Positions 6,678-46,929 of a DNA stretch of 48,908 bases are shown one piece after another. The stretch is from a virus (lineage: Duplodnaviria > Heunggongvirae > Uroviricota > Caudoviricetes), in IMG/VR virus record IMGVR_UViG_3300028454_000679; one strand, 5' to 3'. A program made the position numbers and the translations under genes. How positions within the stretch are numbered: position 1 is the stretch's first letter; every line of letters starts with the position of its first letter. Below the pieces are notes generated by a model. That model searched no databases, was not told where the DNA came from, and saw only the letters and a program-made list of their open reading frames with translations.

Positions 6678-8791
6678 TTCAGTAATATCTCCCTAAATGC
6701 CAGGTATGCTTTAGAAGACTCAAACATTGTTTGTACATTCTTTGCAGTACCAAATAACGCTTGTCTATAGCTAGTTATAACAACTGCCATAATCATACCT
6801 AACGGTACATCTTTGTTGTTTGTAGGATGTGACGTTCCTTCGAGGATTGTGTATCTTACAAACTGCTGTGATGCATCTGGTCCTACACTAAACAGGCTCA
6901 AATCAGCCTGTGCTATAACCTTACCATTGAAAACAATGTTAGCCACATTCTGAAGTGTCGGGGTTCTGTAAATAACAGACTCATCTACAGTAGATGCAGG
7001 TTGTGCCTGAGGCTGTGGTTGTGGTTGAGGCTGTGGTGCAGGTTGTGCCTGGGGCTGTTGTGTAGGCTGTGGCTGTGGTTGAACCTGTGGCTGTGGTGCA
7101 GGTTGTAATACTGAGCCAAATACGCTTGAGGTTCCAACACTTGCCGGTTCAGATTGAGTGACAGGCTCAGGCTGTGGTTGCTGCTGAGGCTCAGGCTGTT
7201 GTGCTGACGCTGGTACTGCACTTTGAGCTGGCTGAATACAACCAATAAACTTAGACAACAGCGGAGCATTAGGTGTAGCCTGATTCTCTGCATAAATCTC
7301 CAAGAATAGCAATTGCAGTTTTGTACCGAAACCAAGTGCAGCTTTGTTATCCAATTCTGCAGCTGTGGAAGAAAGGAGTGAATCCAAAGGAGTGCCACTG
7401 CTAATAAACTGCTGGACGTAATCATTAGACAAAGCGTTCTCGTAAGACAGAGAAGCTGCTTCCTCCTTATTAAGATTAAACACTTCCAAACACTTTTCCT
7501 GCTCAGGAGTCAACTCAATATTCTGGGCACCTGCTGCAATACCACGCTCTTCCTCTGTTACAACACCAAATGCAATAAAACCTGCGTTAAGGTCAAAGAC
7601 AGGGAAGTCCTCTAAATCATCGAAGACTAGATACTGAATTTTACGTTCTCCCCAACGGGCAATATAAATGATTGCCTTTATGATATAAGAACTGTCTGCA
7701 TCGACACTTAGCTTCTTCAAATAGTGCTGCAGAGCAAGTATAGCATTCTGTGCAACTGACTCTTTAGTTGTACCTACACTCCACACATACCTGGAGTCAT
7801 CAGAATCATACATGCTATCACTTTTACCTTGAGTATCATATACTATATTAATTGGCATATTCGTCAGATGTCTATGCCCTTTCATATAAAGTAAAGATGC
7901 TAACTCAAGTAAGTAGTTCTGAGTTATCTCATCATAGTAAACTGCACCGGTCTCCTCATCCAACATACCACCATACTGAACTGCATTGATTGCTGCCCAC
8001 TTTGTTAACTCCTCGTAGTATCTTCTCTCATTATCAAGAATCTCCGGAACAAAGTTATCCTGTGAACCCAAAACCATATCAAGCATTGCCTGGGAACCAT
8101 TACAAGCATAACGGTACTCTGGGCTATTCATAATGTCATTAGGATACTCTGAACCCAGTGCCTCTAAACTTGGGAGCACATACGCATAGTTCCCATCGTA
8201 GGACTCCAAAGCTGCATGTGTAGGAATCTCAAAGAATAACTCATCGACTGGTGTAGTCTGAAAATGATTCTGATTATTCTTGATAACACCTGTTGTGATA
8301 GCAGTTGCATCCTTCATAGTATTAAAAGTCTCAGGGAACTGAGGACTGTAATATGCAGGTAAAGATGGTAAACCATTATGTAAGTCCGGAGCTGTTCTCC
8401 ACATCAGCTCACTTGCAAACATAGCTGTAAAGTCTACACCGGAAATTCCCTCGGATGTAAATATCTCGTTAATGGCTTCTCTAATATCCGGAGAAATATT
8501 TCCTAGGTCTGGAACTATCTCGGTGATAGTGTCAAGCACATTACTCACCTGAATAGTGTTTACACTACTGGCATCATTCAGAATAAGACAAGGCCAACAA
8601 CCCTGTGGGTATGCTATTGAACACTTAAGCCCACTGCCTAAGATGGAATTCAATAACTGATGGTCTTGCATAAATAAAATGGTAGTTGGAACATATTGAA
8701 TTGTCCCATTATTGTCTATACCTACTGCCACCACTAAATTACAGGTGACACCATTTACTTCTCTGGTGTCAATAAAAACATTAGAAATCAT
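6671..8791 (-). CDS. Hypothetical protein (706 aa) with Pro/Gln-rich linker before a small C-terminal domain
   Basis: SD AAGGAG; overlaps the FtsK start; PQPQ low-complexity tract. Confidence 0.8.
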   Translation of the reverse strand: MISNVFIDTREVNGVTCNLVVAVGIDNNGTIQYVPTTILFMQDHQLLNSILGSGLKCSIAYPQGCWPCLILNDASSVNTIQVSNVLDTITEIVPDLGNISPDIREAINEIFTSEGISGVDFTAMFASELMWRTAPDLHNGLPSLPAYYSPQFPETFNTMKDATAITTGVIKNNQNHFQTTPVDELFFEIPTHAALESYDGNYAYVLPSLEALGSEYPNDIMNSPEYRYACNGSQAMLDMVLGSQDNFVPEILDNERRYYEELTKWAAINAVQYGGMLDEETGAVYYDEITQNYLLELASLLYMKGHRHLTNMPINIVYDTQGKSDSMYDSDDSRYVWSVGTTKESVAQNAILALQHYLKKLSVDADSSYIIKAIIYIARWGERKIQYLVFDDLEDFPVFDLNAGFIAFGVVTEEERGIAAGAQNIELTPEQEKCLEVFNLNKEEAASLSYENALSNDYVQQFISSGTPLDSLLSSTAAELDNKAALGFGTKLQLLFLEIYAENQATPNAPLLSKFIGCIQPAQSAVPASAQQPEPQQQPQPEPVTQSEPASVGTSSVFGSVLQPAPQPQVQPQPQPTQQPQAQPAPQPQPQPQPQAQPASTVDESVIYRTPTLQNVANIVFNGKVIAQADLSLFSVGPDASQQFVRYTILEGTSHPTNNKDVPLGMIMAVVITSYRQALFGTAKNVQTMFESSKAYLAFREILLKC
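6995..7215 (-). repeat. Coding low-complexity repeat (PQPQ/QPAPQ)
   Basis: Iterated ggctgtggtt / ggttgtgc units on the plus strand encoding the Pro-Gln linker. Confidence 0.8.
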
Positions 8792-15253: not shown

Positions 15254-17041
15254 TTATTTTTTATTGGTTATAGTGCCTTCAAATTGTGCTTCGTATGTCT
15301 TGTCACCACTCTTAAATTGTGCTGTAATAGAGAAGCTAAGTTCCTTATCCTTTTTCAGTTTTATAAGTCTGTGCAAATTTGACTTACCTTTGCACTTCTC
15401 ACACTTCTTACATAGCTTGTTTGCATTATCTGGATCGAAATAATCCTCAACAGAAGTAAATACTCCAGTACTATCGCCTATAATGTAATTACCACCTTTG
15501 TGTAGCTTCACGTCAATGATCTGTACCTTAAACTCACCCTGTGAAGATCCGTTACCATCTTTTCCCTTTACAGAGTATTTCTTGTCTTTCCATGTCCCAG
15601 GTTTTGCTGGGAAAATAAATTGTTCATCTCCATCAAGCTCTATCTTAATCCCATTATATGTGCCGACGTTTCCTCTTGGGTCTTTATACTGCCTTTCCTC
15701 TACAAACTGGTTGCCATTAAAAATCTCAACTAGTGGGTCTCTTACGCCTGGATGACCTTTAGAGCATGTACTCCGATTCGTTCCATTTATAGGGCTATTG
15801 TTCTCCGACCCTGTATCAGTTCCTACAGTTTCTGAACCATCAGACCATACCATAGTTGGGGTCTCGCTTTGGTAAACACTCTGAATAACAGCATTCAGTA
15901 AAGTGGGTACATCCGAGAACATAGGTACCTTTCCATCAGCACCATTCTTTGTAAAAAGGCTGCCCTTGAGAAAGGCTGCATTACCACTATTACCCGAAGC
16001 ATAGAAATACTGATGGTAGTCCTGATGATTTCCAACCTTCTTATCTGTAATAGTACGCTTTGAATTATCCTCGTAGCTAGGACCAGTGTCGTCTCTGACC
16101 ACCTTCATAAGCTCAACTTGTAGCACATCTAACTGTAGAGACTTAGCTGCCTTATTAAGAGCCTTATCGTAATCACTTGTACCACTCTTATTCTTGTTAA
16201 CACACTTCACGTCATCCTTGAGTGGAAAAACTGATGTAGAATCTCCCTTAATATCATCCACATGTTTCTTAAACTCCTTCGCATTCTTACCATAGGCTCG
16301 AATACGAATGGTCTCTTTTACATCGTCCTCCTCTGCGGAAGATTTATCCTTGTATAATCCAATAGTAAAGAAAACAACGCATGCATACTTGCCTTCCTTA
16401 GCATCTAGTAAAGCGTAGGGGAGTGTGTGACCATCACTCTCATCCCAACGAGTATACTGAGCACCTTTACCTGCCAGTTTACTTGTAACCCTTTCGTAAA
16501 TATCTTTGAGATTCTTAGGGTCTTTCTTCTTCAGCTTACCAGTTGAAAGCGAGTAAAGTTTCTTATTCCAAGCACCTATAGCTGCGGAGTTCTCTGTGTA
16601 CTTGGCATCCTTAGACCAACGGTTATCCTCTTCCTCAAAAGTACTCTTAATAGCTGCTTGGTCATCCTCTTTTGAAATTGCTTCATAAATCTTATCAGCA
16701 TTCTCCTTGTTAAGAGAATTCTTTCCATTCTGCTCTCCAATACCATCACACACTAAAACTTTGTATGAATCCGATTGGGTAACAACTGCATTCTGCTGGT
16801 CGTAATACCCAACGGAAGCTACGCCAGAGAAATCGTAATCTTCGACAACATCCTTGTCATATCTATCTGTGGCTACGGTTACATAGTCGTGGGTAATAGC
16901 TCCCGTACTATTTGCAAAAGAGGAAGTTAAATCCGAAATCATATCATAAATTCCGTCTTTAGCTTCCTCTCCTTCTGGTCCACATCCTGTTAACGCTATA
17001 GCCAATGCTAGTACTGTTGATAATACTTTTACATTTTTAAT
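15254..17041 (-). CDS. Lipoprotein (595 aa), probable ATT start codon
   Basis: AGGAGGT-8 nt-ATT gives (M)KNVKVLSTVLALAIALTG/C, a complete signal peptide II with lipobox LTGC. An in-frame TAG lies 3 codons upstream, and there is no ATG/GTG before the lipobox. Confidence 0.75.
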   Translation of the reverse strand: MKNVKVLSTVLALAIALTGCGPEGEEAKDGIYDMISDLTSSFANSTGAITHDYVTVATDRYDKDVVEDYDFSGVASVGYYDQQNAVVTQSDSYKVLVCDGIGEQNGKNSLNKENADKIYEAISKEDDQAAIKSTFEEEDNRWSKDAKYTENSAAIGAWNKKLYSLSTGKLKKKDPKNLKDIYERVTSKLAGKGAQYTRWDESDGHTLPYALLDAKEGKYACVVFFTIGLYKDKSSAEEDDVKETIRIRAYGKNAKEFKKHVDDIKGDSTSVFPLKDDVKCVNKNKSGTSDYDKALNKAAKSLQLDVLQVELMKVVRDDTGPSYEDNSKRTITDKKVGNHQDYHQYFYASGNSGNAAFLKGSLFTKNGADGKVPMFSDVPTLLNAVIQSVYQSETPTMVWSDGSETVGTDTGSENNSPINGTNRSTCSKGHPGVRDPLVEIFNGNQFVEERQYKDPRGNVGTYNGIKIELDGDEQFIFPAKPGTWKDKKYSVKGKDGNGSSQGEFKVQIIDVKLHKGGNYIIGDSTGVFTSVEDYFDPDNANKLCKKCEKCKGKSNLHRLIKLKKDKELSFSITAQFKSGDKTYEAQFEGTITNKK

Positions 17042-26247: not shown

Positions 26248-29200
26248 CTAACCTAATGAATCAATATATTTATCCAAATCCTCTATTGGAATATTCTTAT
26301 TTATAAACCCACCATTAACAAGTGTAGTGGCAATCTTAAACTTACATAGGTAACCTGTAGCACCCTTGTAAGGCTCTAGATACTGACGTGCTGCCATTAA
26401 CTGTGAACGATTCCTGATACTGATAAACAACTGATTCTGCCTTATTGCTACATGCTTTGGTGAATAAATTTCTTCCTTAATAGGCTCTTCGTAAGTATCC
26501 TCATCTGACAGATAGAAACCAATATCGTCGTCAATGATATCTTCCAAAATACCATCTAGACTATCATCCTCTGTTGTAGCGTCCTCAAACTCTCCATAAT
26601 CTGAGAAAAGTGCTGGGGTAAAGATTGCGGATTTCTGTACTGTATTTGATGTAGACTTAACTGGTGTAAGAACAGTTCCGTCCTTATCCACATAGTCCTT
26701 TACATGACCGTAGTAAAGTTCTGACCATGTTAACAGTGATGCAAACCACTCAGCATTTGAGAAAGCATCCTCATCATAGACTGGCTCTCCAGTGGTCTTA
26801 TGACTTAGTAGGAAATCCTCTTTGTTCACCTTAAAGTACTTAGGATAGTCCGCAACGTAAGCACGTACCGTGTAGTTATCGAAAGCATCTATAATACGCT
26901 GAGGTTGTAAAGGTGCACTGTCCACATCAGGCTGTATTCCTGCAACCACCTGATGTATTCGTTCTAAGTGGAACTGCTTCATATACGGTTTAATAAAGTC
27001 CATAGGGTGGTCAAACCAGAAGTGCCCATCCTGCTTAAACTCATCAGGCGTATTCTCTAAAGAAAACTCACCTGCATCATACCTATGAACAATATCCTGT
27101 ACCATAAGCACTGGTGCTTCATTAGCATCGTCTTTACACTCACCCCAAGAATCGCCAATATTGATACCAATAAAATAATTAGTATGATTCTTCATAGTAA
27201 TCATACATGCTTCCTTGGCTATCTTGTAAATCTCAAATGGATGAATACTCTTATGGACAGAACAGAGTAACTCATCATGGATAAGCATATGCCAAATAAC
27301 CTTGTCACCATGATGGTAACCTCTCTCCTCACACCCTTTGTAAAACCGCATAAGGATAAGACGGAACAACTCTGCAGCAAACGACTGAATACCATAGTTA
27401 CCTGCGGCTCTTCGAATTGTTGCCTCTGCACCAAAGTAGCGTCCATTTGCACGACGCTGCTTATCCTCTTCCGTCATACCAACCTTGGAAAGGTCAAACA
27501 CACGATAAAATCCATAAGCCGACTGTACACGGGAAACACGTGAGGGAATCTTATTGCCATGCTGGTCTAACTTGTAAACTGGGAGTCCAAGATTATCCTT
27601 TTTGACAACTAACTTACCTTTATCATTCATGACCATCTCTTTCTCCCACGCACCTATATAGTTACGTAACTCTGTAGAGATATTCCATTCCTGCAATGCA
27701 TTATCCCTTGCACTGTTCAGTAAATCCATAACAGGTGCGTTTCCGGCTTTCCATTTAGCAAGCATCTTATCAGTCTCTGCAAGTGTATAGTCGTTAACAA
27801 CACCAAACATAGCCTCACACAGTGCTAACCTACCAAGACCGTAAGGAATACCGAAACCTAAACACTTGGTCTTCTTACGAATATCCTTTGTAACCTTGTA
27901 GGCGGGAATACCATGAACTTCTGAAGCAGTCTCGGTATGATAATCCTTTTCTGGGTCACGCATACGCTCAATAAGCTCTGTGTACCCAGCAAGACTGACC
28001 ATAACACGATACTCAGCCTGAGACATATCGAAGTCGAGTAAATAGTAATCGTCATTGTAAGGTTTAATAAACTTTTTAAGCTTACCTTTCATAGTCTGAC
28101 CGGGGTTAGCAATACGACGTGTTTCAATACGAGCCATATTGTAATTCTTAAAGAGTCTGCCCTCTGAGTTATCCTCAAGAATCGGCTTATAGTATGCAGT
28201 GTACTCCTTATTCAATTCTGAGTACTTCTGAAGAATAATGGAGATTGGATACTCTCTCGAATTGAAGTCCTCTTTAGAGATAAGTACATGAGATTTAGCT
28301 TCTTTTGGATTACTCTCAAGAAGAGCATTGTACTCCTCTCTAGTCGTCCCATAAGTCAGTAAATCGTGTGTTATACCACGTACCTTGCTATTAGGTGATT
28401 TAGGCACTGCAGCCATTTTCTTCAAGACGTACTTATCAAGCTTAGGCTTTGTGGGATCCTTTTCACTAAAGGCAAACTTCTTGTAATGTAATACGTCGTA
28501 AATAATATGGCTTAAGTTAGCAGGGGTGAATTTAAAGTCGTAGAATGCATCGTTATTTACTGTTATGCTGTTAAGACCTTTCTCATAATCCTCATCACTT
28601 AAATCACCTATATTATGGAAATTTTCAAGTTTAAACACCTTGGATTGCAAATCGTAAATCGCACCAACGTAAGACTTGACAAAATTCACCAGAATATCAA
28701 TATTGCCCTTAACTTCTTCTCCAAGGAGTCGAACATTATCAACATCTGCAGTCATACCGTAGTACTCACTGACTGGCAGGACATTCTCTAAAAGGGAGTC
28801 CTGTTTCATGTACATATTATAAAGATCAGGTCCCATAAGATTTTTCAAGGAAAGGTAAATCTGTCTGGCATAGTCAGAGTCGGCACAACCGTAAACACAT
28901 GCAACTTCTTTATCCACAAGCATACGGAACTTATCGGCATTACCTTTACCTAAAATATCCTCTAACTCTGGTGTTTCATGTCCATAAAATCTACGAGTAA
29001 GAGTTTTCAATTTATTGTTACCACGAACCTGTTTAGGGTCTAAACAAAATGCCATCTGTAGAGAGTCACAGTCTACATAAATAGGGAATCCCTCACTGTA
29101 AAAAACTTTACCATCGAACATAATGTTATGCCCTGTCAATAAATAAGCTTTTCTGTCAAGGAAGTGATATTCTCCATCTATCTCAATACCCATAGCATCC

Positions 29201-30114
29201 GCTTTGAAGATTTCCTGGAGTTTCCCTAATGCATACTTTTTATCCACATTAGAGAAAAACTCCATATCGAAGAACACTATAACACCCTGATTGTCCTCCC
29301 AACTAAGCTGTGCGGTAACAATTCTGTCCTTGTCAGCTGTGTTACGTATCTTAAGACCACTGGTCTCCGTATCGAATCCAACTATAACTGGATTCTCTCG
29401 TGTTGCCTTTTCTAAAGTTGAAACAAGTGGTTTTAAAAGATACTGGTTAAAATCAGTGATAGATTCTATTGCACGATAGTCCTTTAGCTTCACGCCATCC
29501 CTACTGTACCAAGACATATCAGAGGTAGCGTAAAGGTCTGACATACGAATAGCTCCAACTGTCAATTCTGAAACACGATTGCTAATAAGTGCAGATACTT
29601 CAGAAAGTGCTACCTTTGGTAGTTTAATCTTTGAAGTAGTTGGCTCCAAAGTTATTGAAAAGTCCTTAATCTGTATTTTCATAGATTCCAACATAGAATT
29701 TACGTAAGAATACTTTACACGGACATCTTGACTAACTGCTTCGAAAACCTGTCTGTCACTATCCCCAATGCATATTTGCTTATCCTGAACAATCTCATCC
29801 TCAGTAAATGGTAATCCTCTTACAGTAGAAAAGACTCTTAGAATTGTTTCGATAACAGAACTACCATATTTTGTATCGGGGACTTTCTTTCCCTGTACAT
29901 AAATCTCCTCAATACACGTGTCGATATCATCCCGCTTAAAATCAGCAGGGTACACCACTGGATTATGCAATGGTTGGATACCATTTTTCATTCGGTCAAT
30001 GTCCTCTGCATTGTACAGATTAGCAAGAACGTAGACTACCTTATTTGAGTAAGACATGACACACATTGTGTATTGCTTATCACTTACTGTACATCTACCA
30101 ATACAAGTTAGCAT
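26248..30114 (-). CDS. polA: Family A DNA polymerase with 3'-5' exonuclease and long N- and C-terminal extensions (1288 aa)
   Basis: Exo I GFDTETSG, Exo II GHNIMFD, Exo III YGCADSD; motif A DFDMSQAEYR, motif B RKKTKCLGFGIPYG, AAGNYGIQSFAAE, motif C LIHDELL. Confidence 0.92.
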   Translation of the reverse strand: MLTCIGRCTVSDKQYTMCVMSYSNKVVYVLANLYNAEDIDRMKNGIQPLHNPVVYPADFKRDDIDTCIEEIYVQGKKVPDTKYGSSVIETILRVFSTVRGLPFTEDEIVQDKQICIGDSDRQVFEAVSQDVRVKYSYVNSMLESMKIQIKDFSITLEPTTSKIKLPKVALSEVSALISNRVSELTVGAIRMSDLYATSDMSWYSRDGVKLKDYRAIESITDFNQYLLKPLVSTLEKATRENPVIVGFDTETSGLKIRNTADKDRIVTAQLSWEDNQGVIVFFDMEFFSNVDKKYALGKLQEIFKADAMGIEIDGEYHFLDRKAYLLTGHNIMFDGKVFYSEGFPIYVDCDSLQMAFCLDPKQVRGNNKLKTLTRRFYGHETPELEDILGKGNADKFRMLVDKEVACVYGCADSDYARQIYLSLKNLMGPDLYNMYMKQDSLLENVLPVSEYYGMTADVDNVRLLGEEVKGNIDILVNFVKSYVGAIYDLQSKVFKLENFHNIGDLSDEDYEKGLNSITVNNDAFYDFKFTPANLSHIIYDVLHYKKFAFSEKDPTKPKLDKYVLKKMAAVPKSPNSKVRGITHDLLTYGTTREEYNALLESNPKEAKSHVLISKEDFNSREYPISIILQKYSELNKEYTAYYKPILEDNSEGRLFKNYNMARIETRRIANPGQTMKGKLKKFIKPYNDDYYLLDFDMSQAEYRVMVSLAGYTELIERMRDPEKDYHTETASEVHGIPAYKVTKDIRKKTKCLGFGIPYGLGRLALCEAMFGVVNDYTLAETDKMLAKWKAGNAPVMDLLNSARDNALQEWNISTELRNYIGAWEKEMVMNDKGKLVVKKDNLGLPVYKLDQHGNKIPSRVSRVQSAYGFYRVFDLSKVGMTEEDKQRRANGRYFGAEATIRRAAGNYGIQSFAAELFRLILMRFYKGCEERGYHHGDKVIWHMLIHDELLCSVHKSIHPFEIYKIAKEACMITMKNHTNYFIGINIGDSWGECKDDANEAPVLMVQDIVHRYDAGEFSLENTPDEFKQDGHFWFDHPMDFIKPYMKQFHLERIHQVVAGIQPDVDSAPLQPQRIIDAFDNYTVRAYVADYPKYFKVNKEDFLLSHKTTGEPVYDEDAFSNAEWFASLLTWSELYYGHVKDYVDKDGTVLTPVKSTSNTVQKSAIFTPALFSDYGEFEDATTEDDSLDGILEDIIDDDIGFYLSDEDTYEEPIKEEIYSPKHVAIRQNQLFISIRNRSQLMAARQYLEPYKGATGYLCKFKIATTLVNGGFINKNIPIEDLDKYIDSLG

Positions 30115-31033: not shown

Positions 31034-33286
31034 CTAAAGGCCAATAACATCTGCAGGCGTCATATCCATATAAGCGGATTTTAACTCACGTGAGTAACTG
31101 ACTAAACGCCCTGTTCTGTGAACATACATGCCCTTAATTTTTATAAATTTGAAACCATCGAAGGCATATCCCTGTACAAACATAAGCACTTTATGGTCAA
31201 AGTACTCCTGTATAGCAGGGTCTAATTCCTGTGAACCACCAACACTCATCATAAGGTGGTCACTCAAAGTGATTAAATCCTCAGGCAGGTAAGCCATAGG
31301 TTCTAACACATCACCCAAAAGGCATCGGAAGATATTAACAGACTTAAACACATAACTTCCACTAAGTGCTTTTGTACTGTAATTATTACCAGCAACCTCA
31401 AGTAAAGAGTTTAGGTATACTTTACCAAACTTGCCCTCAGACTGTATTCTGCACTCTGCACACAAACTCTGATACTGCTTGAAGATTACATAACTGTATC
31501 TCAGATAAGACAACGTGTTGTAAAGCACTGTCTGCTTAGACACTTTCTCATTTGTAGCAATAGCATCCATAATATCATGTAGATACTCTTTGTAATCTGG
31601 TCTATCTTGACTCTCCTCTGGACTCACTTCAAAAAGTGCTTCCAGACTCGGGTCAAACAACGCTACATTGTCCAAGATTTCTGGAACGCCACAATCATAG
31701 TAAAGTTTGCTCATACGTAAAATAAGCACTGCATAGTCAGAATTAAATGATGCCTCCGAAAGATTTTTATGCATCTCTTCAATTTCAAGTTCTATCTTAG
31801 CTCTGGTTACTTCCTGATTCGCTCCATTCACATCATTAAAAATTCCTAAGACACTCTGCTGCGTGTGATGTACAAGAACTTTATTAGAGACAGGCATAGA
31901 ACGTACTTCACTGACCTTGATATGCTGAATTGCCTGTATAATACTGATAAGGTCATTATTCTGCATAAGAGTTGAAGTAACTGCAGCTGTTGAGTGCAAA
32001 GTGTTTGTAGGGTCAGGTGATGCAGTTACATTACGTTGAATAAGGTCAAAGTCGTAAAACAATGTGTGCTTAGTCTTAATAGCATTAACCCATTCCGGTA
32101 CCTCGAAAACATCAGCAGACAAGAAGATATTATTGTTTGCCTTACAGAAGTTATAAAGAGACCTGATAGAATGTAAACCATCGTAAAGATACTGAAGGAG
32201 CATATCATTGGTTAAGCCATTATGTGTACCTTTAGAACCATCAAATAGACCAAAGCCGCTCTTGGAATCATTCGCTGCTTCGTTAGCAGGAATAGCACCC
32301 TTATAAGCATTTAGCAAATCAAGATAAGTAAAGTTAGAATCACACAGATTTACAAAATACTTGAACAAACCAAGTCTATAAGAATACTTGTTTCTTCTAG
32401 TCTCACTCTCAAATTCTTTATGTCTTTTTATAAAAGGAAAATACATTTCCCGGAATTTCATAATTTCTTCAGAATGTTTGGTATGAATGTAGATACTATA
32501 CGGGTTAGCTGTCTTGTCGAAGAACTTACTGTACAGAGTATTTATACCAATAAGGCATTTACTTATATCACAATCCAAATCAACAGAGTTCATAAGGTCT
32601 TGTTTACTTATACCGTCTGCTAATTCATCGGTAGTAAATGTCTGATTCAAAATCTTTGTGACCTTTGTAATGTCCTTAATATAAAACTCAGTGTAAGTAT
32701 TGAGAATATAAGCTGCTGGGTTACGATCATAAGTGTATGCATCCATTGAGCTTTTGCCATAGCTGAATAACTCATTGATAAAATCATCGATAACATCAGC
32801 CATAACCTCTTTTACACTATTAGTGTTTCTGAATTTATCACTCTTAAGTTCTCTCACTGTAACAGCTTCTAGCTTTTCTTTACAAATGTCCGTTTTAATA
32901 AACAATGGCAGTGCCTTTGAAACATCGTTAGCCACCAACCAATCAATGAATTCTTCAGTATCAATCTGTAACTCTGCCTTAATGATATGCTTAGCATTGG
33001 TAATGGAGTTTAGATGCTCTTTTGGTATAGGTTTTGCTAGCCAATCATAATCCTTAAGGCACTTGTTGTAGTAAGTACAAATCTGTCTACATTCTTCAAG
33101 ACCCACTGTGACTAAGTGTTCATTCGGTCTCATAGTATCACGTAATTCTTCATCAATAGTGATATCACGTATGATCTTGTAACCTGCATATGCATTGTAT
33201 TGATGCATAACATGTACACCTAGCGCAAACTGAGCTGCTCTAGGACTTATCCAATAGGATTGAATTGAACTATCCTCGTTATACAT
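31034..33286 (-). CDS. Hypothetical protein (750 aa); weak sigma region 2-like segment
   Basis: Start refined to MYNED (SD GGAGGT); DVIDDFINELF...YTYDRN...NTYTEFYIK loosely resembles sigma 2.2-2.3. Confidence 0.7.
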   Translation of the reverse strand: MYNEDSSIQSYWISPRAAQFALGVHVMHQYNAYAGYKIIRDITIDEELRDTMRPNEHLVTVGLEECRQICTYYNKCLKDYDWLAKPIPKEHLNSITNAKHIIKAELQIDTEEFIDWLVANDVSKALPLFIKTDICKEKLEAVTVRELKSDKFRNTNSVKEVMADVIDDFINELFSYGKSSMDAYTYDRNPAAYILNTYTEFYIKDITKVTKILNQTFTTDELADGISKQDLMNSVDLDCDISKCLIGINTLYSKFFDKTANPYSIYIHTKHSEEIMKFREMYFPFIKRHKEFESETRRNKYSYRLGLFKYFVNLCDSNFTYLDLLNAYKGAIPANEAANDSKSGFGLFDGSKGTHNGLTNDMLLQYLYDGLHSIRSLYNFCKANNNIFLSADVFEVPEWVNAIKTKHTLFYDFDLIQRNVTASPDPTNTLHSTAAVTSTLMQNNDLISIIQAIQHIKVSEVRSMPVSNKVLVHHTQQSVLGIFNDVNGANQEVTRAKIELEIEEMHKNLSEASFNSDYAVLILRMSKLYYDCGVPEILDNVALFDPSLEALFEVSPEESQDRPDYKEYLHDIMDAIATNEKVSKQTVLYNTLSYLRYSYVIFKQYQSLCAECRIQSEGKFGKVYLNSLLEVAGNNYSTKALSGSYVFKSVNIFRCLLGDVLEPMAYLPEDLITLSDHLMMSVGGSQELDPAIQEYFDHKVLMFVQGYAFDGFKFIKIKGMYVHRTGRLVSYSRELKSAYMDMTPADVIGL

Positions 33287-33740
33287 TCTTACCTCCAACT
33301 AAACTGAACAAACTTATCAATATCACTGCCCAAATAAAAAGTCTGATTATCAGTGGTGACTTAAAAAGAATCCAACTGATAATATTTCCACTAACTAAAA
33401 CAACAGCTGCAACACCATCCTGTGCTTTATACATAACGGTGTCTACAGCTTTAGAAGAATACCCCAAAAGAATCCTTAAATCCTTCTTATCGGATTTAGC
33501 TAAATTACATGGACCACATGCAGCTACTAGGTTGTATGCTTTGTTTCTACCTAAATGTGAATTCAATGGTATAATATGGTCCACTTGCACATCTTTTCTA
33601 AGTAGCGGTCTTTTACAGTACGCACAAAAGTACACCTTACCGAAAAGACCAGGATTCCTCTTGAAATACTCATGTCTGTAATCCAGTTTTTCTCTCTTTT
33701 TCTGACTATACGTCATCTGGGGTTGCTTCTTTTTTGTCAT
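33279..33740 (-). CDS. HNH endonuclease with C-terminal transmembrane segment(s)
   Basis: CAYC...VDHIIP...NLVAACGPCNLAKSDK (Zn-binding HNH); the C-terminus is hydrophobic (VAAVVLVSGNIISWILF, LIIRLFIWAVILISLFSLVGG). Confidence 0.85.
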   Translation of the reverse strand: MTKKKQPQMTYSQKKREKLDYRHEYFKRNPGLFGKVYFCAYCKRPLLRKDVQVDHIIPLNSHLGRNKAYNLVAACGPCNLAKSDKKDLRILLGYSSKAVDTVMYKAQDGVAAVVLVSGNIISWILFKSPLIIRLFIWAVILISLFSLVGGKNV

Positions 33741-33742
33741 AT

Positions 33743-34162
33743 CTATCCTCGGTTTCTCTTACGTAAAAACAAGACCAGTGTAACTGATAAAACAAGAATT
33801 ACCCCGACTGCACAGGCACCAACGACAAATCCACCTTTACCGCCGATACGTGCTGTAACACGAGCAACTGCATCTTGCTTTACCTTAGTTTCTGGGGACA
33901 ACTGAGGGGTTCCTACTAAATTGGTCTCCACCTCAGAGTCATGATCTATTTTATTATAATCTTGTTCATTTTCATTCTTTGTAGCTGGAATAGTCACTTT
34001 TATATCATCTTCATGCACAACGTTCTCTTTCAGAGCGTCATCAATACTTTCATACTTCTCTCCAGTCTTTGCATCCACAATAATTGTGGATGCGCTGGCA
34101 TGATTACACATTAAGAAAGCGGCGGTAAATACTACCGCCGCTGTTGTTAATACTTTCTTCAT
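33743..34162 (-). CDS. Secreted/surface protein with signal peptide and C-terminal membrane anchor (139 aa)
   Basis: Start refined to MKKVLTTAAVVFTAAFLMCNHASA (SD GAGGT); C-terminal TM followed by RKRNRG. Confidence 0.75.
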   Translation of the reverse strand: MKKVLTTAAVVFTAAFLMCNHASASTIIVDAKTGEKYESIDDALKENVVHEDDIKVTIPATKNENEQDYNKIDHDSEVETNLVGTPQLSPETKVKQDAVARVTARIGGKGGFVVGACAVGVILVLSVTLVLFLRKRNRG

Positions 34163-34172
34163 AAAATTACCT

Positions 34173-37100
34173 CTACACATCACTGAAGATATTTGAAGCA
34201 CCAATTGATATATCAAGTAAATCAGCACTTTCATTACCCTCAGTTGATTTTGTGTCTTCTGAGGGTTCCGGTTTATGAATTCCGAAATCCTCATTAGGTT
34301 CATTGTCATCTACAACATCTGAAAAGATATTGGAAATGTCTATCTGTGGTGTTACTGGTTCCACAGATGCAGGCTCTGTCACAGGTACTGGTACAACAGG
34401 TGTAGGCTCTACTACAGGTGCTGGTTTAGGTATCGGTGCAGAAGCTGGTGCTGGAGCTGAGATAGTTGCTGCTGCAACTCTGTCCTTAAAGATATTAGAA
34501 ATATCAATAGTCTTACTCTGTTTAGCAACAATAACTCTCTCAACCTTTTCCAGGCTCTTTGAAGCTTTCTTACGCCGTTCTGCAGCTGTTTCAACTAAGC
34601 GCCCTTCAAATCGTCCAACAAGATTTTTATTCACATTCTCCTTAGTATAGATATTGGAAGAAGTCATAATATTAGACAGCTGAGAATTAGAAGTATTCTG
34701 GAACGTAAGGTCCTTGTACTTCTGTGCACTGATAAGATTACCTGTCTCCTCAACACACCGCTCAAAAGTGATATACGGAATAATACCGGAACACTCTAAA
34801 GTGGTCTCCTGTTCATTTCGAGGCTCCAATACACCATTCATTTGTGCTCTTGCAAGTAATTCCAAATGCTTCTGCTGAATAGAAACACCACTGTTAATAT
34901 ATGCAACGTAATAATTAGTATACCAACGCAATGACTTCTCTAGACTAGTATCAACTTCCTCTGGCATAAACATACAGTCATCCATGTCAGTGGTTGCTGA
35001 TGCTGGCTCAAGGAACACAAGTGCACCTTTAGGTACATACTCTCCGTCCTTAAACATAACATAGCTGGTTGGCAACACCTTTGAGAAGTAGTCAGCCTCT
35101 GCACCCTCAATACTCACCGTAGACATATTGTTAAAAGTCTCAATGTGAGCAAAGCCACCAATTGGCGCACAGTGCCATGGAGAGATGGGTGGATTCTTCT
35201 TAGTGTAGACTCTACCACTCAAAAGACGTTTATACATCTCAGAGATAGGCTGACGCTGAATAACTGTGGAACCACCTGTGTTTACAAGGGAGATAACACC
35301 TTGAGATGTTGGCTCTGCAATAGTCATAGCAGAAGTAATACCTACTTCTGCTCCAACCTCAATAAGTTTATGTGTTCCGTAGTCAAGACCATAACAGTAT
35401 CTGCATACTCCCTTATGATTCTTGCAGTTCAAGAGTATACGAATTTCTGGACTATCAACATGATTATCCTCTATATACTCTAATGTCTCTTCTGTTGTAA
35501 CTTCTGCATCAGCGTTCTTAGCTTTAGCAAGACCAGGAAGATTTCTAGCCACACGTCCAAGTAAAAGTTCTCTCTGACTCTTGTGTATATTGTAAGTAAA
35601 TACAAACTCACCTGCACCGGTTTCAACCTTGTGAATCTTGTACTTCTGTAACAATTTGATCTTATCATGGTCTAAAGGTGCATCAGGGTCAAAGTTATGT
35701 AAGTACAGACGACTTGTTGCATCAGTTGGAACGTAGTCCAACTCGATAATCTTAGAAAGATCAACTACATGACCATTGAAACGTAAAACCTTAACATGAC
35801 CATCTCGATACAGTTCATAGAAGTCCTTACCGATAACATCACGTCCTGTCACAGTAAAGTAATCAGACTCCTTGTCAACCCTCTTACCAACAAGAGAGTC
35901 AATAAAGGTAAGGGTAAAGTCAATAATCTCGCCTGACTCTATCTGTACAAAGGGTAACTTACCAGAAGCAACAAGCTGCTTAACGTCTTGGTCAATAACA
36001 GTCTTTCCTGTCAGCTTGTAGTATTCCGAAGCTGTTGAAACCTTCAAACCTGTAACCAAGTTAACAGTGCTATCAGAAAGTAGCACATAAGAATTCTTCA
36101 GACTTCCCCATCTAATAGGTACAGTCCAATCAGTCTTGCCACAATCCTCGCTGTTATCATCATTATCAGTGGTTATTGTCATGCCACTCAGCATAAATAC
36201 AGACTTTCGTTCACTGTATCCTGTGTCAGGTGTTGACTTCTGTGCTGCCGCAAAGTTTATAACTGTAGACCGACTAGCCTGATGCGATTCAAATGAATTG
36301 AGTCCCTTTAAGTAATTATGCTTTATAGGTGTCTTAATAGAGCCCTTGGAATTCTTCTTAAGTGAACCCACATAGCCAGATACTTGTAAAATCTGGTCAA
36401 ACTTACCCTTAGCACCAGAATCCAAAATAATAAATAAATTACTGTTACGTTGCAACTTCTGTAAAATAGAATCTTCCACACTCTTACGATTATCACTATT
36501 TCCGCTATACAATGATAACATTGCTGCATCAAGGTCCTCTTCGGAGTTCAGACCTGCATAGTAATCCTCATAAAGTTTCTTCTCTATATCAGATGAATAC
36601 TCAGACTCTACACAAACATCATTGTAATCCCAAATGGATATTGAAATTCCAATATTATCACACCAGAAGAAGCCCTGTCTTCTTAGAACATCATAGTATT
36701 TGTAAGCGTCATTGCCAAGGGTTGAGTAAAGGTCTTCACACACATTGGAAATAGAAACACGCTTAAGTGGGTCACCCAACTTACCAGAGCTTCCAGACTT
36801 ACAAACAAGACCATCCCACTTCAATACCTTACACTCTTTCAATCCCTGCACTGTAAAGGATGGCAGACCCATGGTTCCTGTAAAGCCATCAGGGACAAAT
36901 GAGTTGAACATGATACGCCCTGCTGTGTTAACATACCCATTGTAGTTGACTAATTGCCAATGCTTGATATTCTTCATTTCTAAGTCAAAACGCAACTTAT
37001 CAAGACTACTGTAGGCTAAACAATCCTCTACACTGTAACTCGGACTATTAGTGTTGTCCTTAAACATTGTGAGTAAGTAAAGTCCAAGAATCATATCCTG

Positions 37101-44583: not shown

Positions 44584-46929
44584 CTATTCAGTCTCTGTGC
44601 TGTCTGATTCAGAGTCATCATCTGACTCCTCAGTCTCCTCTGTGTCCTCAGAAGTAGAGTCATCAGTTGTTTCTTCCTCTTCAGGTGTATCCTCCTCAAG
44701 CTGTATAGTTCCTGTGTCATCATCCTCTTGCTCTTCAGGCTCTGGCTTAGGTTTATTCACATCCTTGTCCTTGTCCTTCTCAGTGTTCTTGTCATCCTTG
44801 TCGTCCTTGTTATCTTCTAGTTCCTTAGAGGAACTAGAAGAACTGGAAGAATTGGATGATGGAGAAGGGCTTGGGTTAATCTTGACATTCTGAGTAGAAT
44901 GAGTAGGCTCAGAAACGTAACCTGTCTCGCCAACATGAGAAATATCAACGGTCTCATGTGTAGATACTTTACTGTTAATTGCGTAAAGATTAAATGCCTC
45001 TTCTGCTATCGTCTGACACAGATACTCCTGAGTGTCCTGCCAGATAAATTTAGGATAGGTTGCTCCACTAAGTCCTTGAGTCTTCCGACCACTGTCACTA
45101 CCTACGTAAACTGCAACAGAGTACCTAGGCGTGTAACCGCAGAACCAAGCACACTTGTAATCATTGGTAGTACCAGTCTTACACGCAAAGGAAGTCTTAC
45201 TTGAAAGTACAAGTCCCCTTGCAGTACCATTAACGGCAACCCCTTGTAGAATATCTGTCATATACTGTGCAGACTTTTCAGTGTAAACACGCTCTAATTG
45301 GCAACTCTTGTAAATACTTGTGCCTGAACTGTCCAAAATATCTACAATACAAGTAGCTTCAGTAAAGAGACCGTTGTTAGCCAATGTTGAGTAAGCTGCA
45401 GCCATTTCCGTAGTGTTCACACCATGTGTAAATCCACCTAATGCAGATGCTAGATTATAATCCGAAGCGGTAATATGACTAAAATGCATCTTCTCCAGAT
45501 ACTTCATACTACGCTTTACTCCAGTTTGATTAAACACATTCCATGCTACAGCGTTCTTACTTTTCTCAACAGCTGTTCTAAGCGTAATAGAGCCACTGTA
45601 CTGACCATCCGCATTCCTTGGACCATCCTTCACCTTTACATCACTAACCACAGAGTTAGGGCGCATACCTAGCTCGATAGCAGGTGTGTAAACAAGAATA
45701 GGCTTAATGGTAGACCCAGGCTGTAAGTATGACTGGTACGCACGATTGAAACTGTAAAAGTCAGCCTTGTTAGAACGACCACCAACACACGCTACAACCT
45801 TGTGAGACTGATTGTCGACAACAGTTACAGCGCCTTGCATATCATACTGACCATCTTTTGCTTTTTTCTTAAACTCTTTTAATTCTATATCAACATAGGA
45901 TTGTACCTCTTTTTGTACATTCCTATTTATACTCGTTTTAATTGTGTAAGACTGTTTATGTAAAACACTCTCACACTCAGAATACTTCTTATGAAAATGC
46001 TTGTAGTAACTCTCGTACTCTTTATCAGAGTCAAAGCTATACTTAAAATTAAAGCCAGAATTTCGCATAAGTTCCAATACAGCACAATGCACTGCATAAG
46101 ACACCTCGTAGTCATACTTACGTTTCTGCATTTTAGAAATCACAGGCTTCTCATTCAACGCTTGGCAGTACTCTCGTGACCCTATAAATCCACACTCATA
46201 CATTTCATGCAGGATAACGTCTTTTCGTTTTAGAGCATTTTCGTAATTTGTAATTGGATTATAGAGCGTTGGGTTATTAGGCACACCAACCAACAATGCA
46301 ATCTCAGCTAAAGAACAGTTACGTAAAGGCTTATGGTAGTACGACATAGATGCAGACCCTATACCAATATTTAAATTAGCATAGTTAATATTATTGACGT
46401 AATATTCAAGAATCTGCTCCTTACTGTACTTCTTCTCTAAAAGCTGAGCTATAAGAATCTCTTTAGCCTTACGCTCATATGAACGTTCGAAAGACAAGTA
46501 TGTATTCTTTACAAGCTGTTGTGTAATAGTAGAGCCACCACGAGAGCTGTTACCATGTGTCAACACTTCCTCCATTGCAGCTTTAGCAGTTGATTTCCAG
46601 TTAACACCCTTATGCTTGAAGAAAGAATTATCCTCTATTGCTATCGTTGCATTTATAACATCCTTAGGTAACTGTTGATAAGTCAAATACATAGAACTTG
46701 CATCGGAAGAGAGCGTTGCTAATTCTGTTCCGTCTGAGGCATAAACCTTAGACTGACCATCCCTTGCAAAATCAAGAGGTGATGAGTGAAGCACAACATC
46801 TTTTGCTTCTGCTAAATACTTTTGGTATATTGCGTAATACCTGTCAGCCAGTTCGGAGCCAAAGCTGACTCCGAAAACTGCACCGACAAGTAAACACAGT
46901 ACAACCAAGACACTAATTAACCGTTTCAT
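44584..46929 (-). CDS. ponA: Class A bifunctional penicillin-binding protein (PBP1A-like), with Ser/acidic tail
   Basis: N-terminal TM; glycosyltransferase AIEDNSFFKH, GGSTITQQLVKN, RKAKE; transpeptidase GSTIK (SxxK), KSKN (SxN), KTGT. Confidence 0.93.
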   Translation of the reverse strand: MKRLISVLVVLCLLVGAVFGVSFGSELADRYYAIYQKYLAEAKDVVLHSSPLDFARDGQSKVYASDGTELATLSSDASSMYLTYQQLPKDVINATIAIEDNSFFKHKGVNWKSTAKAAMEEVLTHGNSSRGGSTITQQLVKNTYLSFERSYERKAKEILIAQLLEKKYSKEQILEYYVNNINYANLNIGIGSASMSYYHKPLRNCSLAEIALLVGVPNNPTLYNPITNYENALKRKDVILHEMYECGFIGSREYCQALNEKPVISKMQKRKYDYEVSYAVHCAVLELMRNSGFNFKYSFDSDKEYESYYKHFHKKYSECESVLHKQSYTIKTSINRNVQKEVQSYVDIELKEFKKKAKDGQYDMQGAVTVVDNQSHKVVACVGGRSNKADFYSFNRAYQSYLQPGSTIKPILVYTPAIELGMRPNSVVSDVKVKDGPRNADGQYSGSITLRTAVEKSKNAVAWNVFNQTGVKRSMKYLEKMHFSHITASDYNLASALGGFTHGVNTTEMAAAYSTLANNGLFTEATCIVDILDSSGTSIYKSCQLERVYTEKSAQYMTDILQGVAVNGTARGLVLSSKTSFACKTGTTNDYKCAWFCGYTPRYSVAVYVGSDSGRKTQGLSGATYPKFIWQDTQEYLCQTIAEEAFNLYAINSKVSTHETVDISHVGETGYVSEPTHSTQNVKINPSPSPSSNSSSSSSSSKELEDNKDDKDDKNTEKDKDKDVNKPKPEPEEQEDDDTGTIQLEEDTPEEEETTDDSTSEDTEETEESDDDSESDSTETE

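Follow-up and report, generated by a model that had tools for sequence, protein, structure and literature searches.

Multisubunit-type RNA polymerases (RNAPs) are also found outside cells, and to our knowledge every bacterial mobile element known to carry one is a phage. The DNA considered here, IMG/VR record IMGVR_UViG_3300028454_000679 (48,908 nucleotides, the whole of which is called the window in what follows), carries an enzyme of this type as a single open reading frame (ORF), the product of which, P0001, joins the two large subunits of a bacterial-type polymerase, beta and beta', in one chain. The window comes from a 234,325-bp source contig, k141_88331 of ENA ERZ27247021, and our gene survey covered record positions 18,812-143,307 of that contig, that is 124 kb or 53% of its length.

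Several described systems come close to this one. The phages phiKZ and AR9 possess rifampicin-resistant enzymes with specificity subunits other than sigma, and this is the functional model that we propose for P0001, likewise an element-encoded RNAP of the multisubunit type without recognizable alpha, omega or sigma. Enzymes of the phiKZ/AR9 type are nevertheless split into four to five polypeptides and are far more divergent (PMC7598289, PMC7824862). P0001, in contrast, is one chain with complete beta and beta' folds, and its tblastn matches to such phages are partial, at 22-24% identity. On mobile elements, the only single-chain enzymes described in the sources consulted are those of crAss-like phages and YonO, which are again far more divergent, and reduced relative to full beta/beta'. 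P0001 resembles them as a single-polypeptide, two-barrel polymerase on a mobile element, but seven Rpb1/Rpb2 domains of Pfam are recognized in it, and its similarity to beta and beta' extends along the full length of both subunits. Both the crAss-like and the YonO enzymes escape detection with the cellular COG0085 and COG0086 profiles, according to one study (PMC7481178).

In cells, fused RpoBC chains are established in Helicobacter/Wolinella and in Wolbachia, as the initial annotation of this DNA had stated, but that list was incomplete, since they exist in candidate phyla radiation (CPR) bacteria, in hemoplasmas and in Omnitrophica as well. These fusions (for the CPR, those of Paceibacterota) share with P0001 the beta-to-beta' order, the direct junction and the full-length domain set; unlike P0001, they nest in Bacteria, reside on chromosomes and keep the zinc ribbon, the zipper, full clamp helices and the flap tip. 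The mReC enzymes (Weinheimer and Aylward, 2020, PMC7481178), as far as the available text of that paper describes them, are mobile-element beta/beta' subunits known from metagenomes, alignable with cellular enzymes and placed outside Bacteria. They differ from the fused P0001 in that two separate genes encode them in the entries considered, and in that they form a separate clade in our tree. Again in the available text, their contigs carry T4-like capsid and terminase genes (PMC7481178), whereas the P0001 element has a Rep_3 initiator, ParA and no virion gene in the 124 kb. In the mReC loci that we examined (L019, L079 and others) beta' comes before beta, the reverse of bacterial rpoB-rpoC, with a beta' ORF of about 900 amino acids (aa).

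No description of a cellular-type fused beta-beta' enzyme on a phage or a plasmid was found in the available text of the mReC paper, of a jumbo-phage RNAP review, of a comparative jumbo-phage study or of other articles, and the main text of the mReC paper, in its available part, mentions fusion for crAss-like phages only (PMC7481178). We regard the enzyme as a new lineage and a new architecture of a known kind of enzyme. As to its role, we lean towards the view that P0001 is the element's own dedicated fused RNAP, and a core gene of 230-610 kb plasmid-like elements of gut Clostridia that carry Rep_3 and ParA. The polymerase would, most likely, transcribe the element's own genes as a dedicated, rifampicin-insensitive enzyme, and the element may do so independently of its host, host sigma and alpha included.

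The single-chain polymerase and its lineage

The features of the gene on which the argument relies are these:

34173..41552, minus strand: the RNAP ORF, 2459 aa, ATG start, stop codon included
38268..41552, minus strand: beta module, residues 1-~1095 (profile, AF2 model, Foldseek)
38922..38954, minus strand: beta catalytic-lysine motif GDKLAGRIGNK, residues 867-877 (direct reading; aligns to E. coli 1063-1073)
38253..38300, minus strand: beta/beta' junction, residues ~1085-1100 (alignment to E. coli beta and beta' and to natural fusions)
34683..38267, minus strand: beta' module, residues ~1096-2290 (AF2 model, Foldseek, alignments)
37218..37238, minus strand: beta' Mg-binding motif NADFDGD, residues 1439-1445 (invariant in 34 relatives)
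35394..36143, minus strand: Zn-site II span with a lineage-specific insertion; C1804 (EDCG motif) and C2043/C2050/C2053
34176..34682, minus strand: C-terminal tail beyond RNAP homology, residues ~2291-2459 (~170), acidic and proline-rich

In reading this ORF as a single-chain, cellular-type enzyme with colinear beta and then beta' motifs, the initial annotation was right. The ORF listing gives one frame, set among co-oriented, tightly packed genes (GC about 39%), and Pfam recognizes Rpb2_45 (residues 520-577), Rpb2_6 (822-1010) and Rpb2_7 (1015-1050) in the beta part, followed in the beta' part by Rpb1_2 (1310-1462), Rpb1_3 (1471-1642), Rpb1_4 (1688-1748) and a weak Rpb1_5 (to 2084). The beta module is made up of divergent N-terminal lobes (1-470), the fork and Rif-pocket region, a tipless flap, the catalytic double-psi beta-barrel (DPBB) and the C-terminal clamp part. 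Residues 1-470 are nearly devoid of Pfam signal, yet a profile built from them hits ordinary RpoB in its N-terminal lobes (E 3e-23), to which, judged by this match, they are homologous. An AlphaFold2 (AF2) model of residues 1-1125 (predicted local distance difference test, pLDDT, 77.7; predicted template modelling score, pTM, 0.72) is matched by Foldseek to bacterial beta over its whole length (TM 0.65-0.67, E about 1e-58). The beta' module comprises a clamp without zinc ribbon, shortened clamp helices, the catalytic DPBB, the bridge helix, Zn-site II, a divergent trigger loop and a C-terminal region; its model (residues 1095-2290; pLDDT 75.8, pTM 0.69) matches bacterial beta', again over the whole length (TM 0.60-0.64, E about 1e-41 to 1e-44). 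Bacillota enzymes are among the best Foldseek matches of both modules.

The junction was located by alignment with concatenated E. coli beta and beta' and with the fusions of Helicobacter, CPR bacteria and a hemoplasma. Homology to beta ends at about residue 1091 and homology to beta' begins at about 1096, a direct and essentially linkerless fusion that falls within the interval first proposed for it from the window (38110-38425). NADFDGD, GDKLAGRIGNK and the second beta' zinc site, noted as intact from the outset, prove to be invariant in an alignment of 34 relatives: this is the case for D868, K869, G872, G875, N876 and K877, and for the Zn-site II cysteines C1804, C2043, C2050 and C2053, the equivalents of E. 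coli C814/C888/C895/C898. EDCG is followed by a lineage-specific insertion of some 200 residues (~1810-2030), seen against E. coli and Bacillota beta' and poorly modelled (pLDDT <50 at residues 1826-1943). That the metal aspartates, the lysines, Zn-site II and dozens of core positions should be invariant at about 30% identity argues for strong purifying selection on catalysis. With a beta DPBB that carries two lysines, a beta' DPBB that carries NADFDGD and the corresponding fold context, P0001 belongs to the two-barrel multisubunit RNAP superfamily, and its sequence points to a DNA-dependent RNAP of the bacterial beta/beta' type, both large subunits in one chain and presumably competent in catalysis.

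When 5.8 billion proteins were searched, the nearest matches fell into about 50 clusters (2400-2900 aa, 28-34% identity, E down to 1e-227). Every one of them combines beta with beta' domains and derives from metagenome assemblies, the contigs reaching 612 kb. Next came further unnamed fused proteins, of up to 3300 aa; fused RpoBC chains of bacteria (CPR, hemoplasmas, Wolbachia, Helicobacter, Omnitrophica) followed only after these, with scores near 300 bits. The identical protein is recorded on six contigs, the longest being that of 234,325 bp, with the 7.4-kb ORF intact; since more than 50 clusters are fused in addition, the fusion is no artefact of assembly or frameshift, and the gene is one ORF rather than two separate ones. 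No close stand-alone beta' turned up below 1352 aa, the best match among these shorter proteins being an ordinary bacterial beta' at 27% identity.

A tree was built with IQ-TREE (LG+G4, with the Shimodaira-Hasegawa-like approximate likelihood ratio test, SH-aLRT) from 87 sequences and 1039 columns, after beta 478-1060 and beta' 1283-1810 had been cut by family hidden Markov models (HMMs) from fused and split genes. It contains the P0001 family with related unnamed proteins (SH-aLRT 100; 28 rows, all fused); the mReC split enzymes (support 100), with L019 and L079 as anchors, both of which correspond to contigs tabulated in that paper (PMC7481178); a second fused group, from IMG/VR (support 100), with ORFs mostly of about 2000-2500 aa (range 1990-2900); and Bacteria (support 99), including every named bacterial fusion. 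Forcing the family together with the complete Bacillota set costs 119 log-likelihood units in the approximately unbiased (AU) test (p-AU 4e-6), by which an affiliation with Bacillota is rejected. With the beta/beta' of Bacillota the sequence identity is only about 25%; the family HMMs score Bacteria at 400-460 and 300-350 bits, and the two other mobile-element groups at about 200 bits. P0001 itself remains far under all rpoB, rpoC and fused equivalog cutoffs of NCBIfam (TIGR02013, NF001616 and TIGR02386 are not reached), with 203.7 bits against 801 for rpoB, 222.7 against 896 for NF001616 and 238.7 against 963.5 for rpoC_TIGR, and, for the fused equivalogs, 287.8 against 5372 for NF007172 (Helicobacter type) and 257.3 against 4632 for NF011417 (Wolbachia type). 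The family is a deep, exclusively fused lineage, apparently undescribed, outside the sampled Bacteria, mReC and the second IMG/VR fused group. The early suggestion of a distinct lineage, as opposed to ordinary RpoB/RpoC, is thus upheld by the tree, the AU test and the NCBIfam scores: the clade does not nest within a bacterial one, nor does its context look chromosomal.

The family was sought in several catalogues. A family-specific DNA-pattern scan of IMG/VR found no member and a single-protein scan of IMG/VR no match; no relative appeared among INPHARED phages or PLSDB plasmids, and 401 sampled Oscillospirales species genomes gave no family match, a sample that is not proof of absence. Alignment-based scans of IMG/VR and GTDB, of which the best 80 of at least 599 matches were considered, respond to universal motifs and do not allow absence to be inferred.

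Some of the records met in these scans are of interest in their own right. The best-scoring cellular rpoB/rpoC among the matches listed (456 and 344 bits) are those of L084-L088, contigs of 'uncultured Bacilli' metagenome-assembled genomes (MAGs) in GTDB; they are ordinary split genes from uncultured gut Bacilli, and lie inside Bacillota in the tree. L076 (IMGVR_UViG_3300029491_000146) has a normal Bacillota rpoB-rpoC pair nested in Clostridia and is probably cellular contamination, and several INPHARED 'phage' records carry bacterial rpoBC. The second fused group (L002-L081, for example L003, L011, L053, L075 and L020) occurs commonly in IMG/VR, on contigs of 167-193 kb with a CheckV completeness of 91-100%; among five of its records, Terminase_6N was found marginally in one, and Gp23 and Rep_3 in none. 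This group is not described in the available text of the mReC paper, although IMG/VR was mined there (PMC7481178).

Sigma docking, possible partners and the C-terminal tail

In structures of bacterial holoenzymes the flap tip, the clamp-helix tip and the zinc ribbon with the zipper provide the docking surfaces for sigma regions 2 and 4 and the contacts to spacer DNA, the flap-tip helix of beta being the docking site of sigma region 4 and of NusA. It is in these places that the family has lost material. The beta' zinc ribbon is deleted in every aligned member (about 24 residues, spanning the four cysteines C70/C72/C85/C88 of E. coli). Compared with all bacterial sequences, the whole family also lacks some 12 residues of the zipper segment, some 11 of the clamp-helix coiled-coil tip and some 25 of the beta flap, tip helix included; E. 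coli ~887-920 is without counterpart, and the AF2 model has no helix at residues 811-850, the flap-tip position. Since all members have lost, wholly or in part, the flap-tip helix, the clamp-helix tip and the zinc ribbon together with some of the zipper, canonical docking of host sigma-70 is probably not used. Initiation specificity would come, instead, from an element-encoded factor or from a tethering mechanism.

As the initial annotation had observed for the window, no gene for alpha, omega or a clear sigma is present: none has a Pfam label there or in the 124 kb surveyed. This might mean that the fused chain is a catalytic core only, which would assemble with host alpha2 (and omega and sigma) into a hybrid holoenzyme, the fusion replacing part of the role of alpha. 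Both modules do keep the bacterial fold, C-terminal beta and beta' regions included, and their best structural matches are enzymes of the host phylum, Bacillota. Yet the elements that dock sigma are missing from the whole family, the enzymes of phiKZ and AR9 function without alpha and omega, and with only about 25% identity to Bacillota beta/beta' the interfaces for alpha, omega and sigma are unlikely to have been preserved, so that we find such a hybrid enzyme rather doubtful.

The rifampicin pocket has also changed. Alignment with E. coli gives the substitutions H526K, S531F and Q513H, at positions that are classical sites of rifampicin resistance, and for this reason P0001 is predicted to be insensitive to the drug.

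The C-terminal tail, finally, may be relevant to the question of recruitment. That of P0001 has three ISNIF motifs (2350-2355, 2405-2410 and 2453-2456), with F2456 invariant in the 34-relative alignment of the family. A terminal Phe is present in 27 of the 34 members (shuffled tails: mean 1.6, maximum 8) and in none of 17 bacterial fusions, and 16 of the 34 fit [LMI][SDNTEQ]xF-COOH (shuffled tails: mean 0.12, maximum 2). These pentapeptides resemble the bacterial beta-clamp-binding motif, QL[SD]LF, with the leading Gln usually absent. Near-C-terminal N-[IL]-F also occurs on the ligase-like protein (VNIF; window 41552-42745, minus strand), on a FEN-type exonuclease (L181:18954-19967) and on a 464-aa protein of unknown nature (L165:11708-13102; here and below, numbers with an L prefix designate examined loci); it was not seen in the ligases of two relatives. 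A complex prediction of the tail with the B. subtilis beta-clamp dimer, run without controls, scored 0.31 for a mark of 0.32, which speaks neither for nor against.

By analogy with the clamp-binding motif, we venture as a speculation, to which we give rather low odds, that the RNAP is recruited to DNA by the sliding clamp through the tail pentapeptide x-[LMI]-[SDNTE]-x-F-COOH, and not by sigma. The tail would tether the single-chain polymerase to beta-clamps loaded on the replicating element, with an element-encoded clamp-loader subunit as part of the scheme, and this would couple the element's transcription to its replication. Such tethering would be consistent with the missing sigma-docking elements. 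In phage T4, late transcription is coupled to the clamp via gp45, gp33 and gp55; here, in contrast, the tether would be built into the polymerase itself, and on a plasmid-like replicon. A clamp-loader AAA+ protein (DNA_pol3_delta2 and AAA, above the Pfam cutoff) is encoded at L183:12404-13489, and no sliding-clamp (DnaN-like) gene was recognized in the surveyed half of the contig. An ORF of about 360 aa beside the ligase was considered as an element-encoded sliding clamp and set aside, the three candidates being impossible to align and without Pfam match.

The element that carries the gene

The element has a Rep_3 initiator (Rep3_N, Rep3_C; RepM/RepE-like by NCBIfam) with an adjacent ParA, and an HD-domain protein (HD nuclease) beside them. 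Rep_3, a 116-aa ORF and ParA (L166:6113-8847) are the only opposite-strand genes in the 124 kb and are flanked by about 0.5 and 1.1 kb of non-coding DNA; on account of this orientation and of these flanks the stretch is the likely origin region. Labels of replication and repair comprise PolA, an NAD-ligase-like protein, Toprim, RNase T-like, UvrD, DHH, an SbcCD-like pair and the FEN-type exonuclease, and labels of ATPases FtsK/SpoIIIE (FtsK/VirD4-like) and T2SSE. There is also an envelope and secretion kit, made of two TatA, TatC, a trigger-factor-like protein, signal peptidase I (Peptidase_S26), sortase and flotillin, located at L166:1-4761 and at L184:2957-3730, 5871-7397 and 15992-16552; YkuD and a class-A penicillin-binding protein (PBP) are labelled as well. 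Capsid, portal, terminase and tail families were recognized neither by Pfam nor by PHROGs in the region surveyed.

Relatives are found on contigs of 227-612 kb, with sizes that recur within clusters (about 260-266 kb, 330-400 kb and 612 kb). A 612-kb long-read contig of ERZ27273445 (L167) has the conserved gene block described below plus SecA, sortase and an SpaA/TED adhesin; the 227-kb contig NFKQ01000002.1 (L180; 227,320 bp), from cultured Anaerotruncus colihominis (GCA_002160465.1), has the block plus HSP70; and further members, annotated as 'hypothetical protein', are in a Eubacterium MAG. Given Rep_3, ParA, the secretion and cell-wall genes, the lack of any virion gene in 53% of the contig and the absences from catalogues, the element is probably a plasmid-like extrachromosomal replicon of gut Clostridia. 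The earlier proposal that the polymerase sits on a mobile element therefore holds, with an extrachromosomal-type element bearing Rep_3 and ParA, but of the 'viral/plasmid' class then envisaged the plasmid-like half is the one favoured, on the strength of Rep_3, ParA and the secretion and cell-wall genes, while the viral half finds no virion gene in the portion surveyed.

A jumbo phage or phage-plasmid, with P0001 as its virion or non-virion enzyme in the manner of phiKZ/AR9 or mReC, and with virion genes in the remaining 47% of the contig, would account for several of these observations. Genes are tightly packed on one strand, with a coding density of 93%, overlapping gene ends and a median gap of -0.5 nt; an HNH endonuclease lies beside the RNAP gene; most ORFs are without any known family; contig sizes are in the jumbo-phage range; the second fused group resides on IMG/VR contigs rated 91-100% complete by CheckV; and the bacterial mobile elements previously known to have multisubunit-type RNAPs are all phages (PMC7598289, PMC7481178). 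Against this stand the lack of capsid, portal, terminase and tail families in the 124 kb, the Rep_3 initiator with ParA, the absence of the family from the IMG/VR scan and from INPHARED, a relative in the assembly of a cultured isolate, and a secretion, sortase and cell-wall gene set that parallels that of Hodor megaplasmids. A phage identity thus seems to us the less probable one, perhaps one chance among several.

The same inventory might evoke the tiny chromosome of a highly reduced bacterium, the ORF being its cellular RNAP, inasmuch as TatABC, trigger factor, signal peptidase, PBP, FtsK, UvrD and a clamp loader are present, SecA and HSP70 occur in relatives, and one relative is on a 612-kb contig. 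This is hardly credible: Rep_3 is a plasmid initiator, accompanied by ParA; there is no tRNA in about 91 kb (window, L165 and L166), no match to Rfam families in the 49-kb window and no label for ribosomal or translation genes in the 124 kb; most ORFs belong to no family; and a relative is found inside a normal A. colihominis isolate assembly with its own chromosome.

If the element is plasmid-like, as we think, the Hodors are its closest described class by gene content, a comparison made by description only. These are conjugative megaplasmids of gut Bacillota, of 211-389 kb and 44.6-47.1% GC, which are often missed or misfiled (PMC12934698). They share with our element Rep_3 beside a long non-coding stretch, ParA, an HD nuclease next to the replication genes (a relaxase in the Hodors), sortases and a trigger factor in the secretion module, where the element has Tat in place of SecYEG (PMC12934698); their VirD4-type ATPase may have its counterpart in the FtsK/SpoIIIE ATPase of the element. 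Unlike it, they have neither RNAP nor PolA reported (PMC12934698), and the element has a GC content of about 39%; ParB, ParM, VirB4, VirB6, SecYEG and CRISPR-Cas were not seen in its 124 kb. Yeast killer plasmids are linear, with an RNAP that is much smaller and strongly reduced. As a plasmid endowed with its own non-canonical multisubunit-type RNAP, the yeast cytoplasmic killer plasmid offers a parallel, by description only and within the available text of its report (bioRxiv 10.1101/320143), its host being eukaryotic. The Inocle elements were set aside on account of their other marker gene (InoC), their host, which is an oral Streptococcus, and the lack of any RNAP reported for them.

A number of facts weigh against a dedicated polymerase on a plasmid-like element. 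The other 47% of the contig could harbour virion genes, alpha, sigma or a second RNAP, and no VirB4, VirB6 or relaxase was recognized in the 124 kb. The probable independence from sigma is deduced from deletions, and sigma-70-like promoters are matched no more often than by chance, a result that tells neither for nor against. The tree was built under a site-homogeneous model, contains long branches and lacks an archaeal or eukaryotic outgroup. P0001 is itself on a long branch; it alone is without a further 55 or so clamp residues that relatives retain, and its trigger loop shows ISLVN in place of the bacterial MRTFH, with loss of the Arg and the His that are conserved there. With these three traits P0001 could be slower or more specialized than its relatives. 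One could go further and see in the altered trigger loop, in a divergent bridge helix and in the long branch a decayed or exapted homologue that has lost RNA synthesis; but the metal-binding aspartates, both lysines, Zn-site II and dozens of core positions are invariant at about 30% identity, and the 7.4-kb ORF is intact on six contigs, which makes decay very improbable.

Should a dedicated enzyme on a plasmid-like element be the correct reading, this would be the first bacterial element of plasmid type to encode, along with PolA, ligase, FEN and a clamp loader, an entire transcription core of the cellular type, and a new kind of carrier for such an enzyme, shifting the line between plasmid, virus and minimal cell. 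A natural single-chain core without sigma-docking modules bears on what beta and beta' need alpha and sigma for, and also on the depth of the beta/beta' tree outside cells, of which it would represent a third or fourth mobile-element lineage beside mReC. As a relative sits in a cultured, non-pathogenic gut anaerobe, Anaerotruncus colihominis, direct testing is possible, and a bacterial RNAP that is one polypeptide and insensitive to rifampicin might be developed into an orthogonal tool for transcription.

Neighbouring genes

Around the polymerase gene the window shows the following:

41552..42745, minus strand: NAD-dependent DNA-ligase-like gene, 397 aa, immediately upstream; its stop overlaps the RNAP start
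34118..34142, minus strand: GC-rich terminator-like hairpin, 11-bp stem with 7 G-C pairs, ~30 nt past the RNAP stop
33279..33740, minus strand: HNH endonuclease, 153 aa, just downstream of RNAP; not conserved in relatives' loci
26248..30114, minus strand: family-A DNA polymerase, 1288 aa, downstream of RNAP (Pfam DNA_pol_A, NCBIfam)

The window and two relatives' loci have in common a block that runs from the NAD-ligase to RNAP, a variable large ORF, an ORF of about 250-300 aa and PolA. The ligase-like gene (PHROG 3869 at 1e-23; NCBIfam LigA weak) is syntenic with RNAP in all three loci compared, and the PolA of the window is 38% identical to that of the P0044 locus. Two more ORFs located 3' of PolA have counterparts only in the locus of the 612-kb contig. 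The large ORF between RNAP and PolA (750, 1068 and 1330 aa) was considered as an RNAP subunit and discarded, since it is not detectably conserved across the three loci. In the 1288-aa PolA, the recognizable polymerase domain extends only over ~618-994, with long unexplained N- and C-terminal regions on either side.

The ORF at 33743-34309 (minus strand), in its longest reading, shares 137 nt with the 3' end of the RNAP gene; a later start, at 34162, is given by the public call, which places the hairpin in its first codons, and the product has a C-terminal membrane anchor. At 4584-8791 (minus strand) a FtsK/SpoIIIE-type ATPase of 697 aa is translationally coupled to a 706-aa ORF without known family; from their position, the two could be a VirD4/VirB4-like pair. 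Protein-atlas models of the 706-aa and 754-aa neighbours have a pLDDT of about 0.3. The class-A PBP (781 aa, transglycosylase and transpeptidase; 44584-46929, minus strand) has an acidic, Ser/Asp/Glu-rich C-terminus, and the YkuD L,D-transpeptidase lies near it on the source contig (L166:10001-11224).

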